Part shown: piece by piece, positions 3,301-64,000 of the stretch
Layout of the letters: each line of letters starts with the position of its first letter
Position numbering within the stretch: the stretch's first letter is position 1
From: a virus
Lineage: Duplodnaviria > Caudoviricetes
Length of the DNA: 64,000 bases
Virus record (IMG/VR): IMGVR_UViG_3300021255_000109
Span: 1-64,000 of that record
Reading direction: 5' to 3' (one strand)
Notes under the pieces: generated by a model
Seen by the model: only the letters and a program-made list of their open reading frames with translations
The model's database searches: none
What the model was told of the DNA's origin: nothing
Made by a program: the position numbers and the translations under genes

Positions 3301-6300
3301 ACTTGTTCATATTTAATAGAAAGATGGAGTAAAAATAATAATACTTGGAAAACTGTTATTGATACAACATCAGTAACTGGTAATAATTATCGTGTTATTT
3401 ATCCAGATGTTTCATTTTATATGAACGGTAATACAAGTAGTAGTGCTTCATCTTATCCGTAGTATTGTAATAAGTTAAGAATTACTTTTATGGTAACCGC
3501 AGTAAGTTCTCAAAGATATGGTGCTCATATAGGATTTATTGCAGGTTGGGGAAGCGGAGTTGCATCACACACTAGATCTGCTACTTATCCAAGTGGAAGA
3601 CTATTCGATATAACTATGGCTTAGTATGGTTTACCAATGTATTTAGATGGTGAATCTGGTAGAGGCATAGGAAGATTGCTTATGCCATTAGAGAGACTTC
3701 ATATCTATGGTAATGGTGGATGGTATGATGCTGATGTTGCTAATTATGCAGATTTATATATTGGAAATAGCGGTAATATTACTGCTGCAGGATAGCATGC
3801 ACAAGGAAGAATATTCCTTTATTGTAAAAATACTACATATACGACAATATAGAATTCTGATACATATCCATAGCCAGCTAATAGAAATTTAATTATTGGT
3901 CCTTAGAATCTTAGCAATGCTTATATTGTTTCTTATTAGAACTCTAATGGAACAGCAGATGCTAATACATTATATGATTTAATTTTATATAGTAATACTG
4001 GTAATAAATTAGCAAATGCGCCAAAAGGTTATAAATATGGACAAATTCTTACACTTCCGTATAGAAAAGGATTTGGAAATACTATTCCTGATTATGCAGC
4101 ATAGGTTTATATACATGGTGGGTCAACCGTATCAAATTAGCTGTTTTATAGAACAAGTACTGCTAGTGCTTGGAATGACTGGCAAGAAGTTGCTCATATT
4201 ACTGCCAATGTCGCCGTCGGAAGTTCAGTTTTACCAGTATATGTTGCTGCCGATGGAACAGTTACTGCAATTACTGCTTTATCAATGCCATCTGGTCAAA
4301 GTGTTGATATAAATGGAGGAAATCTTAATTTAAAACCGCCAAGCAGCTCTTCTAATGACAGTGGAGATATTGTATGGTGGTATGGTGGCGGACAAGAACA
4401 AGCTCGTATATTGGTAGGTAGCGGTGGTGAAACAACATTTTCTCCATTATATCGTTGTTATAGTTCTGCTGGTACTCAATTAATTTCTGGAAGGCTTATT
4501 ATTGGTGCTTCTGCGGGAGTCGGCAGTACAACTTAGCCAATTTATATTGATAGTGCAGGTGAAGCAAAGTCTACTTCTTATGCTCTAAATGCAACTGTTA
4601 ATTCTAGTACAACTAATTATATGACCTATTATAGTGGGGCTAATGCTGTTTCTGGCACAGCTGCGGCTTAGATGATAGACGGATGTTTAAATCTTCATCC
4701 AACATCTGGAACATATAGAGAAGGCATTAGAATTTATCCAACTGGTAACTGGTCTACTATTGTATTATTAGGAAATGATCATAATAATGCTACTTCTGGA
4801 ACTAGTGCTAATACATGGGGTTTTTACAATAATAATGGGAAAATTTATATTTCTCGTAATGCAAGTACTAGCGGAACATATATGCTTTATCATGATGGCA
4901 CTAACTGGGGCGTTAAAGGACATTTTACTCCAAATGCTACAAACACTTATACATTAGGAACTACATCTTTAAAATGGGCAAATGTATATGCTACTACTTT
5001 TACTGGTGCTTTAAGTGGTAACGCAACTACGGCAACTACATTTCAAACTGCAAGAACTATTTGGGGTCAATCTTTTGATGGTAGTGCTAATGTTACCGGT
5101 AATATGACTGGTGTTGGTTCATCTATTAAATTAATTTCTGGATAGACAGGCTTTTAGTTTTTGACCTCTGCTGGAGGTGCGGCGACTGGTAGCTTTGGTA
5201 AATTAGGACTTAATAGTACGTATGCTAATATTGATTTTACTAATTATGTATTAGATGTAAATGGCGCAACTTATATTAGAAGTACAACTGATTCTACTTC
5301 TGCTACTACTGGAGCAATTAGAATTGATGGTGGAATAGGTGTTGCTAAAAATATCTGGAGTAATGGATTTATTAAATCTAATGGATTTACTTCTGATACT
5401 ACTGTAACAAATAATGTATTTAAGCCAGCCATTACAATATATCCAAGTAATTCTAATGAAATTAATTTTGGCGGTTATTATACTGGTAATAGAACTATTC
5501 ATTTTGGATATAGAAAAGTAAATGATCGTGAAATTCCAACTGCTTATGATTTCGGGCCATATAGTCAAGTAAGACTAGATGTTGGCGAAGTTGAAGCTGG
5601 AACTACAAAAGAAACTTATATTACTCTTGGTAATAACAAAGCTACATCAGAAGCTAATAATGGTCGTGGTAGAGTACGCATGTATGGTACTAATGCTTAT
5701 TATAGTGATATTATACCTGTTGATTAGACAGCAAATCGTGCATATTATTTAACGCAGTCTCCAGTTGCAAGTGCTTATTTATTATCTTATCATGTATCAA
5801 ATGGTGATTTAAATACTATTTATGATGCTGGAATGTTTACTGGAACAGGTAGTGCTACTAATGGCCTAAATAGTGATGGAAAATATTATTCAATATTATC
5901 AGTACCTTATAATAAAGCTGGCGGTAATACTGCTCCTAACTGGGGATGGTAGTTAGGTACTAACACTAATAATAATGACAGTCTTTATTTCCGTTTATCT
6001 AACGCAAGTGCATGGAGGGCTTGGCGACAAGTTGTTCATATTGCTAAAGATACTGGTTTAGGAAGTGGAACAAAACCAGTTTATGTCGCTAATACTGGAG
6101 CAATTACTGAATGTTCTTCATATGCGGGCGGCACTGCTGTTACGCTAAATAATGCGTCAAAGGCAGCCTCAACAGCTAGCTTTTATGCTCCAACTGCAGG
6201 AGGCGCAAATAATACTCAAGCATTAGTTGGCGCAGGAACTACAACAGCTCCTAAATGGGTAAATATTTCTCCTTCAAGCGCATGGACAGCTGGTACCACT

Positions 6301-57020: not shown

Positions 57021-58577
57021 TCACTTAATGCAAGCGTAACGCTCAGTATTAAGCTTATCCATCATGAGTTCATATCCGGTCTTACCAGACATGATGGTCT
57101 CAAAGATAGAAGGAGAGAAGCCAGATACGAAGCTTACACGGCCCTGTCCGAGCATCGGAATGTTATTCTGGCGAGCATCAACATTCCAGAAAATCAGATG
57201 AGGCAGTTCAAGTCCGTAACGTGCCCACTTCTTAGCGATACCCTCCATCACAGTCTCGCAGTTGCGAGAATTGATGCTAGAAGTATAACGCCAACCAGAA
57301 GTTGCAGAGTCGAACTCCATATCAGAGATGATAAGGACATTCTTCGGGATATCTTCCTTCTTTACACCAGGACGAGTTGCAGTATCAAGTAGAAGGTCGA
57401 AGGTTGCTTCGATATTAGTGTTCTCACACAGATTAGTGCGATAAATTCTTTCGACCTTATCACAGAAATCTACTCCCTCAGTACGGATGAGCTGAGGACG
57501 AGAAGAGAAACTAATATAGTTATTGGCGAACGGGCCATTGTTATGCTCTGCGCAATACAGACCCAGAGAAATTGCTACGTTGATAGGAGCAGAAGCGCTA
57601 TCACCAGTCATAGAACCAGAGGTATCTACAACAGCAATACCATTGAAAGTTGCATTATTGAAATAATCGGTCAGATTATCCCAATACTTGTTAACCATCA
57701 GACGATTGGTATCGTACAGGTCAACATTGCTCTTATTATAATCATTAAAGCTATACCAACTTCTGTACTGCGGTTTCATGACCTTTACAGCCTCAGCTAC
57801 GCACTCATAAGGATACAGCGCCTTAGCGTTTACCTTAGTAGTGGCGTCCTGTGCGAACTCAGCGTAAGTCTTTACATTTTCGTTCTTCTGGCGCTCAATG
57901 TCATGACGAGCAAAAGCGTTCTTGTAAATCATTCCAGCACGAGAAGGAATCTTATCGAACTCAATCTCGTCCCAGCGATTCTCAGACATTAGTCTCTCCA
58001 GAACGTTGATGCGGGCGCGCAGATTAGAAAGAATCTTTCTATACTGGCGAGAAGTCATGCCCATATGCTGGCGAGTCAGTGCTCCCAGTCTGCGGCTTTC
58101 AGCACTTGAAGTGTTCTCGGACTTCAACCACTTAGCAAGTAAAGACGGAGTCTTGCAGCTGACATCAAGTGCAAGCTGATGAGTCATCAGCGCGAATGCG
58201 TCACCTTCCAGCGGAGTCCCTACGAACTCATACAAGTCATCCCAACGACCAAACTCAGGTACATGGATGAGATTGCGCTTTGCAGCATCTGCGTCCGCAT
58301 TAGCAAGCCAATGCATACACACACGGAAGAATCTACGCTCTCCCTGGCCTCCACGCACATCACGGATATAGAACAGGCACTTTAGTGCATACTCCGGGTT
58401 TTCCGCATATGCGTTCTTAAAGAGGTTAATTACATCTGCGTCACTGCGATTACGATAAGCTGCGCCCATCGCAAACATATCCAGTAAATCAGAACGAGTA
58501 GTCTTATGGGTCACACCACCATTCTCAGTGAGAGTGAAGTTAGTAGCATCATTCAGACCGGACATAAAAGTATTCAT
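57021..58577 (-). CDS. DUF2828-type TROVE/Ro-like helical protein with a C-terminal vWA domain
   Basis: TENG, RDVRGGQGERR, GRWDD, AKW; MIDAS motif DTSGSM, T, SDMEFD; FWNV; SGFSP. Confidence 0.85.
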   Translation of the reverse strand: MNTFMSGLNDATNFTLTENGGVTHKTTRSDLLDMFAMGAAYRNRSDADVINLFKNAYAENPEYALKCLFYIRDVRGGQGERRFFRVCMHWLANADADAAKRNLIHVPEFGRWDDLYEFVGTPLEGDAFALMTHQLALDVSCKTPSLLAKWLKSENTSSAESRRLGALTRQHMGMTSRQYRKILSNLRARINVLERLMSENRWDEIEFDKIPSRAGMIYKNAFARHDIERQKNENVKTYAEFAQDATTKVNAKALYPYECVAEAVKVMKPQYRSWYSFNDYNKSNVDLYDTNRLMVNKYWDNLTDYFNNATFNGIAVVDTSGSMTGDSASAPINVAISLGLYCAEHNNGPFANNYISFSSRPQLIRTEGVDFCDKVERIYRTNLCENTNIEATFDLLLDTATRPGVKKEDIPKNVLIISDMEFDSATSGWRYTSSINSRNCETVMEGIAKKWARYGLELPHLIFWNVDARQNNIPMLGQGRVSFVSGFSPSIFETIMSGKTGYELMMDKLNTERYACIK

Positions 58578-58863: not shown

Positions 58864-58970
58864 TGATTTTTTCCTTTCTTTCATTTTCTATAAATATTAT
58901 ATCAAATTTTTTAGGAAAAATCAATTTGTTATATTTTTATCTGGTATATACTCTTTTATAAAATTAATAG

Positions 58971-59053
58971 AGGCGCAGGTCAGATTCGAACTGACGATAA
59001 CTTACGTAATTGGTTTTGCAGACCAACGTCTTTAACCACTCGACCACTGCGCC
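58971..59053 (-). tRNA. tRNA-Cys(GCA) with an atypical 14-nt variable region
   Basis: Cloverleaf GGCGCAG/CTGCGCC; anticodon loop CTGCAAA; T loop TTCGAAT; U73. Confidence 0.85.
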
Positions 59054-61206: not shown

Positions 61207-61228
61207 CTTCAAAGCTCCTTTTATACAG

Positions 61229-61316
61229 CGGGGGTATTGGGATTCGAACCCAAACCGAGGCCCTCAGAAGGCTGGAGTTTTAGAGACTCCTGTGCTGACC
61301 GTTACACTATACCCCT
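61229..61316 (-). tRNA. Amber suppressor tRNA, anticodon CUA (probably Gln)
   Basis: Anticodon stem GGAGT/ACTCC with loop CT-CTA-AA; T arm TTGGG-TTCGAAT-CCCAA; A1/C72 mismatch, G2-C71, G3-C70, G73; 20-nt variable region. Confidence 0.92.
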
Positions 61317-61322
61317 ATAAAA

Positions 61323-61412
61323 CGGGGCACCTGGGACTCGAACCCAGACGCCGCTCACACGGTTACTAGCGATTTTCAGGACCGCTGTCTTACCAGTTAG
61401 ACTTAATGCCCC
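61323..61412 (-). tRNA. tRNA-Ser(TGA) with C33
   Basis: Class II cloverleaf; anticodon loop CC-TGA-AA; G73. Confidence 0.8.
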
Positions 61413-61427
61413 AAAAAGGGACTGCTG

Positions 61428-61760
61428 TTACACAGTCGCAGACATTGACTCAAGGTTACGCTTAGCTTCGGTTACTTCCGAACGTGCGTCATTCACATAA
61501 TTTTCCATTTTGTTCAGACGCACAAGAGCCTTAGCAACTTCCTGTTCAGCTTTCTCAAACTCACGCTGGGCACGAGCATATCTCTTATTAGCAATCTTCA
61601 TAGCACAACGTGCGATTGCTAGATTCTGTCCGACTTCTACATCAAACGTATCTCTTGGGTCACACTTGGCCACACCGCGCACAGTCTTTCCAGCATAGGT
61701 AGAAACGGCAACCATCTTGTTCGAACCATCAGTGTAAAACTTGTACTTCTCTTTTAACAT
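61428..61760 (-). CDS. Hypothetical protein (G.AKC.P.D.F....G..LA.AR plus coiled coil)
   Basis: ORF with AAGGAG RBS. Confidence 0.75.
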   Translation of the reverse strand: MLKEKYKFYTDGSNKMVAVSTYAGKTVRGVAKCDPRDTFDVEVGQNLAIARCAMKIANKRYARAQREFEKAEQEVAKALVRLNKMENYVNDARSEVTEAKRNLESMSATV

Positions 61761-61908
61761 TTTTTCTTTCTCCTTTAATTCTTTATATAGTGTGCATCCT
61801 TCTAATCAAAAAGGATCATAAGGATTACATCTTTGTGAGCCACATAATTTGCAATTTTCTGCTACAAACTTTTCAAAATCCATTAGTTTCATTATTTCTA
61901 CCTTTCAG

Positions 61909-61982
61909 AGGGGCAAACGGGGCTCGAACCCGCAATCCCTACCTTGGCAAGGTAGTGCGTTAGCCAATTACGCTATTGCCCC
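61909..61982 (-). tRNA. tRNA-Gly(GCC)
   Basis: Cloverleaf; anticodon loop TTGCCAA. Confidence 0.92.
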
Positions 61983-61988
61983 AAAATA

Positions 61989-62312
61989 TTAAACGCGACG
62001 ATTCCATTTTATTATAGCTTCTACTCTTTCATCACATTCAGCCGACATAGCATCACATTCAGTACATTCAATTGCGTAGCTTAAGGTGCCATCATTATAT
62101 TGAAACTCTTCAATTTGCGCTTTTGCTCCACAAAAAGGACAAGACTTTAAATAAGTGTTAATTTTCTTGTCATCCCAGACCAACTGATGATGCCAATTTT
62201 CTGATTCAGATAAAAATTGCTTTACATCTATATTGTACTTCTGTGATAAGTGCTCAATCTTTTGTTCGCTTTCTTTACGCATTTCTTCTATTAAACGGTC
62301 AATATCTATCAT
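61989..62312 (-). CDS. Lar-like restriction-alleviation Zn-finger protein
   Basis: LKSCPFCG...C..C...EAI.KWNRR; the track start extends into tRNA-Thr. Confidence 0.75.
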   Translation of the reverse strand: MIDIDRLIEEMRKESEQKIEHLSQKYNIDVKQFLSESENWHHQLVWDDKKINTYLKSCPFCGAKAQIEEFQYNDGTLSYAIECTECDAMSAECDERVEAIIKWNRRV

Positions 62313-62695: not shown

Positions 62696-62709
62696 GAATT
62701 TCCTCATAG

Positions 62710-63008
62710 TGGACCTGAGGGGAGTCGAACCCCTGTCCGAAATTTATACTTACTATAATTGTTTACGCTGTTTTTTTAAATTTGCTCCACCATCTTATTT
62801 TTAGTGCTAAGAATAAGAAAACTTAAAGTGACAGTTGTTTTCGATCCTCAACAGTTACTACTGACATCTTACTGTGTTTTGGAGGCTGAGCCAAATCAGG
62901 CTGCCATTTGATATTGATATCTTGCGTTTATATTTAGATTTTAGTGATTACGTCACTACACGAGCGCAATTATAATTTTCTAAACCCCGTCGAAACCATT
63001 ACAAGCCC
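62710..63008 (-). ncRNA. ssrA: tmRNA with tag peptide (A)ARYQYQMAA
   Basis: 5' GGGCUUGUAAUGGUUUCGAC; 3' GGGGUUCGACUCCCCUCAGGUCCA with G3-U70; AUAAAC-GCA resume context; tag ends AA-UGA. Confidence 0.92.
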
Positions 63009-63674: not shown

Positions 63675-63705
63675 ATGTAACATAAAAAAATGAATTTGAA
63701 AAAAT

Positions 63706-64000
63706 GTGTGAACCTTCGCTCTACATCCTATATTTCTCGTTTATTAGACTACTGAGGAGATAAGTCTGAGCCTAAGACCCGTCGGTCTTAAACTTCTTAC
63801 CCCACCCGTTTTCCACGGGCACAGGTTCTGCACCTTTAATCTCAGAAGGGATTGCTTACCCTCAACTTTCACCCACCATTCAGATATTTTTATAATAATG
63901 ACCTCAACATTATTCATTCATTATAAATAGAAATTAAAAAGTCTTTGCCTTGGGCTACTTGTGCGTTGACCTTGTCTTATAGTCTTATTACTAAGACATC
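63706..64000 (-). ncRNA. 3' part of a large ornate ncRNA (ROOL/GOLLD-like), truncated by window end
   Basis: No ORF; many short stems (GAGGG..CCCUU, CCCGU/ACGGG, UAAGACC/GGUCUUA); AGUAGCCCAA and UGGGUGAAAG segments resemble my recollection of this class; located in a tRNA cluster. Confidence 0.55.

Follow-up and report, generated by a model that had tools for sequence, protein, structure and literature searches.

Recoded phages are common in gut microbiomes. Phages in which TAG stands for glutamine ('code 15'; Borges et al., 10.1101/2021.08.26.457843; Peters et al., PMC9523058) encode a CUA tRNA, carry in-frame TAG in late genes where it is read as glutamine, and encode no synthetase; the charging of phage suppressors was left as an open question by Borges et al. 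(10.1101/2021.08.26.457843). In Escherichia coli, amber suppressors charged by GlnRS include supE (tRNA-Gln with anticodon CUA) and su+7 (tRNA-Trp with anticodon CUA), and an amber tRNA-Ser was made Gln-accepting by changes at 1-72 and 3-70 (PMC9976931, section 17). The phage described here likewise has a CUA tRNA, late in-frame TAG and no synthetase of its own, but its CUA tRNA bears a second arm with a conserved copy of the tRNA-Gln anticodon loop, a feature unmentioned in the published code 15 accounts as searched; the term 'variable arm' occurs 0 times in the text of Borges et al. (10.1101/2021.08.26.457843).

The stretch of DNA analysed (hereinafter designated the window) makes up the opening 64 kb of a contig of 180,778 bp whose ends overlap by 108 bp, and the contig is therefore taken as a complete circular assembly (180.8 kb). 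The genome carries 33 tRNAs, in a cluster spanning 58970-80413, and one tmRNA, and just one of the 33 tRNAs, that with anticodon CUA, reads a stop codon. Reading through TAG lifts stop-to-stop coverage from 0.35-0.67 to 0.99 over 120-160 kb, and the 418 in-frame TAGs of the genome are concentrated in large late/structural genes. TAG is thus read as sense in this phage genome. The tmRNA (RF00023, 93 bits) lies at 62707-63008 (-) and specifies the tag peptide ARYQYQMAA, other tags being found in the tmRNAs of sister phages. A ROOL RNA (RF03087, 165 bits, a match to the 3' part of the model) occupies 63690-64000 (-), cut at the window end, just upstream of the tRNA cluster.

Domain searches of the whole phage genome with positive controls returned no PF00749, PF00587 or PF00472 domain, and thus no GluRS/GlnRS catalytic core, no tRNA-synt_2b core (SerRS family) and no release factor. 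Charging of the CUA tRNA must therefore fall to host enzymes. An earlier sequence-only reading of the window had allowed for either a host charging enzyme or a phage synthetase encoded outside the window; the genome-wide search excludes the latter and leaves the former as a necessity, and the synthetase, release factor and second CUA tRNA that the same reading had proposed to look for in the rest of the genome are all absent from it. The same kind of controlled search found no CCA-adding enzyme domain in the phage genome, and CCA is unencoded in 33/33 phage tRNA genes, the CUA tRNA included, so that all 33 tRNAs depend on the host enzyme and the missing CCA of the CUA tRNA is nothing special.

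The CUA tRNA is encoded by an 88-nt gene at 61229-61316 (-), which ARAGORN calls at 61228-61316 (-) and cmscan matches over 61229-61316 (-) to the Rfam tRNA model RF00005 at 55.2 bits (E 3.4e-10), with pair 1:72 flagged as non-canonical. The minimum-free-energy (MFE) fold is a cloverleaf that includes a GCCUU/AGGGC stem, and the fold z-score is only -1.35, by itself uninformative; we judge the tRNA real because of its tRNA model score and its conservation in relatives, not because of fold energy. The tRNA at 61229-61316 is a predicted TAG-to-Gln suppressor of known kind. The tRNA-Pyl label given by ARAGORN was rejected, as it follows the anticodon only and K stands at 7/78 TAG sites compared with Q at 37.

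The acceptor pairs are A1·C72, G2-C71, G3-C70, G4-C69, G5-C68, U6-A67 and A7-U66, and the 20-nt variable region reads A-GCC-UUCUGAG-GGC-CUCGGU, forming a second arm whose stem can be lengthened by U·G and U-A to the 5-bp GCCUU/AGGGC form (Table 1). Sequence, cmscan and the MFE fold all confirm what the sequence-only reading had described, namely the A1/C72 mismatch, G2-C71, G3-C70, G73 and a 20-nt variable region with a GCCUU/AGGGC stem, and its summary of the gene as a suppressor tRNA with a Gln-type acceptor end plus a long variable region was right. Pairing of the arm loop with the D loop was considered and rejected: the D loop contains UCAG here, but this is not conserved in relatives.

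Table 1. Parts of the CUA tRNA, its neighbour, and long-arm UCA suppressors of related contigs. Positions are those of the window unless preceded by a locus name.
Feature	Position	Strand	Basis
Acceptor stem, 5' strand AGGGGUA; A1 faces C72, mismatch	61310..61316	-	sequence, cmscan
Acceptor stem, 3' strand UACCCCC (61230-61236), and discriminator G73 (61229); no CCA encoded	61229..61236	-	sequence
D arm: stem GUGU/GCAC (G10-C25, U11-A24, G12-C23, U13·G22), loop AACGGUCA with G18 G19	61292..61307	-	sequence, cmscan alignment
Decoding anticodon arm: 5-bp stem GGAGU/ACUCC, loop CUCUAAA; CUA at 61281-61283	61274..61290	-	ARAGORN, fold, cmscan
Second arm: 3-bp stem GCC/GGC, 7-nt loop UUCUGAG at 61263-61269; CUG at 61265-61267	61260..61272	-	sequence, fold
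Unpaired 3' linker CUCGGU between second arm and T stem; last U can pair 15:48 with A15	61254..61259	-	sequence
T arm: stem UUGGG/CCCAA, loop UUCGAAU	61237..61253	-	sequence, cmscan
Adjoining ordinary tRNA-Ser(UGA), 5 nt upstream of the CUA tRNA; variable arm with 4-nt loop, different kind	61322..61413	-	ARAGORN, sequence, Rfam
Long-arm UCA suppressors, e.g. GCGGG[CUCCAAA]CCCGC	L421:7260-7354, L429:5406-5500, L382:2275-2371, L449:2555-2651, L478:413-512		ARAGORN label SeC

For comparison with relatives, the Ro60-like gene at 57021-58577 was used as an anchor, yielding 80 related loci, and four whole sister genomes were compared, with the phage studied here designated G000. Other routes gave little: a RecJ-based locus search returned one locus, blastn of the tRNA region against GenBank phages and a search of viral contigs for an exact 21-mer of the CUA tRNA gave no match, and the TAG-rich late protein at L004:5291-6517 had no match in five relatives. 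The sister phage G005 (the record of L008), whose Ro60-like protein is 76% identical, keeps to the standard code: it has two tRNA-Gln genes but lacks a suppressor, so that recoding is patchy within the phage family.

The sense codons of G005 aligned to the TAG sites of the phage (n=78) encode Q at 37 sites, E at 10, K at 7, S at 3 and W at 0. The log-likelihood of this profile under the substitution profile of each residue is -159 for Q, -251 for E (the next best) and -296 for S, so that Q fits best, with a lead of more than 90 log-likelihood units. In the pooled data of three long-arm phages, TAG is aligned to Q in 48% of cases compared with 53% for real Gln codons (p=0.13), and to S in 4.0% compared with 3.6% for Gln codons (p=0.72), whereas Ser codons are aligned to S in 56% (p=4e-66 versus TAG sites). 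TAG is found at conserved Gln positions about as frequently as CAA/CAG, and in the sister phage G004 it is aligned to Q in 58%. These alignments indicate that TAG is an ordinary glutamine codon, conserved sites included, and that the predicted suppressor is the tRNA that would insert glutamine at UAG. The assignment of TAG to Gln in the sequence-only reading is thereby borne out (37/78 Q against G005 and 48% versus 53% in the pooled set), while its suggestion of mixed Gln/Ser decoding finds no counterpart in the frequency of S at TAG sites. G004 itself has a third kind of CUA tRNA (of the type at L012:7200-7270, also seen in L040, L062, L082 and L085), with loop CUCUAAC, C1-G72 and discriminator U, A or C, identity marks unlike those of the long-arm and short CUA kinds.

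The bacterial Gln identity set comprises U35, G36, A37, G73, a weak 1-72 pair, G2-C71, G3-C70 and G10 (PMC9976931, Table 1), among which G36 contributes to GlnRS binding and recognition (PMC9976931). At the acceptor end the CUA tRNA has the whole of this set, with G73, a weak 1:72 position (an outright A·C mismatch), G2-C71, G3-C70 and G10. The anticodon part of the set, Y34-U35-G36-A37 (U38), is incomplete in the decoding loop, which reads C34-U35-A36-A37-A38 and has lost G36; the full U33-C-U-G-A37 string is present solely in the second arm. The body also departs from class I, having a 20-nt variable region in place of a 4-5-nt variable loop. The E. coli Ser identity set includes G1-C72 and C11-G24. 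The CUA tRNA has A1·C72 and U11-A24 at these positions, and the long arm and G73 of the tRNA-Ser/SerRS set are present in form only. The sequence-only reading, which had taken the long arm plus G73 as SerRS determinants, was thus correct about their presence but not about a serine-like arm, since the loop is conserved and anticodon-like and the Ser marks are missing. Whole-body similarity was tried as a guide to ancestry from tRNA-Gln or tRNA-Trp and gave no call, all isotypes scoring 0.70-0.84.

The loop UUCUGAG of the second arm matches U33-CUG-A37 of the tRNA-Gln anticodon loop. The CUA tRNAs of relatives are of two kinds, short class I and long-arm, and the phage has a long-arm CUA tRNA only and no short one; both kinds lie side by side at L168:3019-3112 / 3541-3613, L176:1226-1316 / 1320-1394 and L313:387-475 / 481-553. 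We took a census of viral contigs with a pattern limited to three elements (CUA loop, long spacer, T loop) that left the arm sequence unspecified, pooled its matches with the related loci, and later added contigs from bacterial MAG bins. In the pooled viral set, long-arm CUA tRNAs whose 1:72 pair is weak numbered at least 28 distinct sequences, and the mimic loop is present in 28/28 listed. Numbering this loop as an anticodon loop, the 28 listed have C or U at 32', U at 33' in 23/28, C (25) or U (3) at 34', and invariant U35', G36' and A37', on arm stems of 2-5 bp; the 3' linker is 5-7 nt long in 26/28 and the 5' linker is mostly 1 nt. With the MAG-bin contigs included, a Y-U-(C/U)-U-G-A-R loop occurs in 35/35 listed distinct Gln-type long-arm CUA tRNAs on 16 different stems. 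One variant, in L190, has the arm loop GUCUGCU on a 6-bp stem.

Shuffled arms give such a loop in 1.5% of cases, and among other long tRNAs of the same loci a 7-nt loop with YUGA occurs in 4/170 (p=2e-35 versus the long-arm CUA tRNAs). In a MAFFT alignment of 36 long-arm sequences, three rows of which are off by one column, 3/3 pairs of the arm stem have changed on both sides and 90% of cells are paired, covariation is present in all helices of the design, and the decoding loop CUCUAAA is invariant. Eight other class II CUA tRNAs among the matches listed have no mimic loop; their bodies are Leu-, Tyr- or Ser-like, with G1-C72 in seven and A1-U72 in one, and A73 in seven and G73 in one (L129). 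The anticodon loop of 48 ordinary phage tRNA-Gln genes reads C/U-U-U/C-U-G-A-C, to which the mimic loop corresponds exactly at 32-37 and from which it differs at 38, where the mimic has A or G and the real phage tRNA-Gln mostly C. By this correspondence the second arm of the CUA tRNA is a putative copy of the tRNA-Gln anticodon loop and a strongly conserved module. Conservation of the loop copy in dozens of phage CUA tRNAs makes the arm probably part of the answer to how the tRNA is charged, not a conflicting serine signal. A full-text search, with most subscription journals outside its reach, found no published description of a two-armed suppressor design, and the module is apparently undescribed.

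The state of the 1:72 pair differs between the CUA kinds. Among the matches listed, a mismatch occurs in 17/17 short CUA suppressors, in 15/36 long-arm ones and in 4/47 ordinary phage tRNA-Gln, the last of which have a weak Watson-Crick 1:72 pair in 42/47. The mismatch is thus obligatory without the arm and optional with it, suggesting that both features serve the same end, and this pattern fits the view that mismatch and arm may be two partly interchangeable ways of compensating.

Applied with a UCA loop, the same pattern recovered at least six long-arm tRNAs, one of which is an E. coli-type tRNA-Sec. The extra arm contains U-CCA-A, the Trp loop, in 5/5 of the non-Sec long-arm UCA tRNAs listed; in three or four of these five a stem of 5-7 bp carries a clean 7-nt loop, N-U-CCA-A-A, and three of the five have the Trp-type acceptor A1-U72/G73. 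With CUG/UUG on CUA suppressors and CCA on UCA suppressors, the spare triplet therefore follows the amino acid usually assigned to the stop codon (Gln for TAG, Trp for TGA), and in the phage studied here the putative mimic triplet CUG is the one matching the Gln assignment of TAG.

Extra arms are also found on sense-codon tRNAs of these loci. Those with anticodon UAU (AUA readers) at L019:206-299, L186:6110-6201, L187:1804-1892 and L205:11410-11497 have covarying arm stems (GCAC/GUGC, GCGC/GCGC, CAC/GUG and CCGC/GCGG) and an invariant loop CAGAUUA that contains GAU, the major Ile anticodon. This arm may be a third case of identity mimicry, though it has A at 33' and U at 37'. The phage's own tRNA(UAU) carries a different insert. 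In its tRNA-Cys(GCA) at 58970-59053 (-), the 13-nt variable region includes an extra arm, AC[GUAA]GU; the idea that this arm mimics Tyr (GUA) was rejected, as its loop is a GNRA tetraloop, replaced in relatives by GAAA, AAAA or UUAU. Class II-like tetraloop arms are present on tRNA-Cys of L011, L058-L060, L067, L068 and L084, tRNA-Thr of L040, L079 and L186, and tRNA-His of L087, and the extra arms on the family's tRNA-Cys, -Thr and -His thus end in tetraloops and are not anticodon mimics. Whether phages generally separate decoding from charging in this manner, with a spare hairpin that would present host synthetases with the anticodon loop of Gln in the case of CUA readers, of Trp in that of UCA readers and perhaps of Ile (GAU) in that of UAU readers, leaving the decoding arm at liberty to read a reassigned or unusual codon, seems to us evenly balanced.

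Outside the window, at 91855-98868 and 108484-108557, the phage genome contains six exact LexA boxes of the Firmicutes type, where 0.03 would be expected, together with two Rex boxes of the clostridial type, and these make a Bacillota host the probable one. Contigs with long-arm CUA tRNAs fall in eight MAG bins, of which five are Bacillota (L342, L344 and L349 lie outside that count). Four of the eight putative-host bins have a GlnRS-specific domain without GatB and four have GatB without a GlnRS domain, the host assignment being by metagenomic binning and hence weak. This 4:4 split implies that the design is not tied to one route, so that no single charging enzyme can be named; the sequence-only reading was right to single out charging as the question. 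At the RNA level, a 785-nt contig of a metatranscriptome run, which belongs to another study than the probable source sample, covers 61218-62002 without change or gap, with the arm intact, and spans both the CUA tRNA and tRNA-Ser(UGA). No arm-removing joint was found in four RNA runs, as represented by assembled contigs in which mature ends, CCA addition, strand and level are not visible. The segment 60918-61213 has no contig cover in the four runs, which proves nothing.

From the conserved loop and the marks around it, aminoacylation identity emerges as the most likely role of the putative two-armed module, and we consider it rather probable that the arm acts as a cis identity mimic that would help host Gln-charging enzymes to accept the CUA tRNA, binding of the arm by a synthetase being inferred. 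The CUA decoding arm would read UAG on the ribosome, and in doing so keeps U35 and drops the G36 that Gln-charging enzymes read. One compensation for this loss would be the Gln-tuned acceptor end, with its open A1·C72, G73, G2-C71, G3-C70 and G10; the other would be the loop UUCUGAG of the extra hairpin, restating U33, C34-U35-G36 and A37 of tRNA-Gln. The host enzyme that would then read the spare loop as a Gln anticodon differs with the host: GlnRS, or non-discriminating GluRS with GatCAB acting after it. This reading would raise Gln charging and bias the tRNA away from Trp or Ser.

Two geometries can be envisaged for the mimic. The arm may swing beside the anticodon stem, with the loop reaching the anticodon-binding domain by way of the flexible 6-nt linker, or the junction may restack, such that the spare arm takes the place of the anticodon arm and the linker acts as a class I variable loop. 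When tRNA is bound to GlnRS, its anticodon stem is lengthened by non-Watson-Crick 32·38 and 33·37 pairs, which splay bases 34-36. The GCCUU-CUG-AGGGC fold predicted for the second arm resembles this GlnRS-bound state of the anticodon loop. Geometry is the weak point of the mimic model: class I synthetases (GlnRS, GluRS) approach the tRNA with the variable region facing solvent, and the arm stem (2-5 bp) is shorter than the anticodon stem. Position 38' also argues against the mimic, being A or G where the E. coli identity set has U38 and most phage tRNA-Gln have C. Sister phages read TAG as Gln by means of short class I CUA tRNAs without the arm (G004), and since these suffice, the arm is not indispensable.

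The tetraloop arms on tRNA-Cys, -Thr and -His count against the mimic as well, in that extra arms can have other uses, and together with the ability of short CUA tRNAs to work armless they speak for an arm unrelated to aminoacylation, serving as a handle or shield for a tRNA-handling protein (a modification enzyme, a nuclease decoy or the Ro60-like system) or as a stabilising module. We regard such a role as unlikely, because the other arms are tetraloops and not anticodon-like 7-nt loops, the second arm lacks the CAGCAA handle motif seen in Ro60-linked RNAs, and the choice of triplet goes with the amino acid, being CUG/UUG on CUA and CCA on UCA suppressors. To our knowledge, amino-acid-specific anticodon readers are the only ones among known protein classes that would tie the triplet to the amino acid. 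Quite improbable, in our estimate, is an arm that is mainly a fidelity device, in which the Gln loop, or simply the size of the arm, would shut out TrpRS and others. In its favour, an A1/G2-G5/A9/G73 body carrying a CUA anticodon does not by itself discriminate between GlnRS and TrpRS, E. coli su+7 being an example, and the D arm and anticodon arm resemble those of the phage's own tRNA-Trp; most of the bacterial Trp set (A1, G2-C71 to G5-C68, A9, G73) is present at the acceptor end alongside the Gln set (PMC9976931, Table 1). Against it, W stands at 0/78 TAG sites of the phage, although this is an outcome that does not separate TrpRS blocking from GlnRS help, and whole-body similarity settles neither a Trp nor a Gln origin.

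That a serine-type class II arm with G73 makes the tRNA a SerRS substrate, giving Ser, or a mixture of Gln and Ser, at TAG, we consider highly improbable despite the 20-nt variable region, G73, G2-C71, the position of the gene 5 nt from tRNA-Ser(UGA) and the fact that SerRS does not read the anticodon. S is hardly more frequent at TAG sites than at Gln codons (4.0% versus 3.6%, and 56% at Ser codons), and A1·C72 and U11-A24 stand in place of the Ser marks. SerRS reads the shape of the arm, not its sequence, and a shape-only determinant would not need the conserved loop. Least credible of all is a non-functional relic with TAG decoded otherwise, for which only the 1:72 mismatch and the missing CCA can be cited. 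CCA is missing from all phage tRNAs, the gene has a full tRNA score and a conserved design with covariation in all helices, and no other CUA tRNA exists in this complete genome, whose in-frame TAGs number about 420.

If the identity-mimic reading is true, the second arm would represent a novel type of tRNA identity element and would explain how recoded phages use the synthetases of standard-code hosts. The occurrence of a putative Gln copy in amber suppressors and Trp copies in opal suppressors makes the charging question experimentally simple. Were synthetases to read the arm, it would constitute a natural uncoupling of identity from decoding, relevant to genetic-code expansion and to suppressor tRNA design. 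For annotation, tRNA finders label such genes Pyl, SeC or undetermined, and the long arm can wrongly suggest serine.

The E. coli amber suppressors are alike in having CUA (U35 kept, G36 lost), a weak or open 1:72 position, G73 and G2-C71/G3-C70, a combination that leads to Gln acceptance, and the amber tRNA-Ser case indicates that GlnRS can accept a tRNA with a long-armed body. Those suppressors are laboratory or point-mutant tRNAs with no extra loop, whereas here a 1:72 mismatch and a putative mimic arm appear to have been fixed by natural selection. Class II tRNAs (Ser, Leu, bacterial Tyr and Sec) and allo-tRNAs (PMC5389517) likewise have an extra stem-loop between the anticodon and T arms, but class II arms have 3-5-nt loops of no fixed sequence, in contrast to the short stem, anticodon-like 7-nt loop and 5-7-nt 3' linker seen here. 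The closest parallel to the proposed mechanism comes from mRNAs. The E. coli thrS operator contains an anticodon-arm mimic that is bound by its synthetase. The mRNAs of yeast AspRS and other aminoacyl-tRNA synthetases also bear anticodon-arm mimics bound by their synthetases (PMC9976931, section 45). In both settings the cognate synthetase recognises, or in the case of the phage tRNA would recognise, an anticodon-loop hairpin through its anticodon-binding part; the mRNA mimics regulate translation, whereas the putative mimic described here is built into a functional tRNA, with aminoacylation identity as its proposed role.
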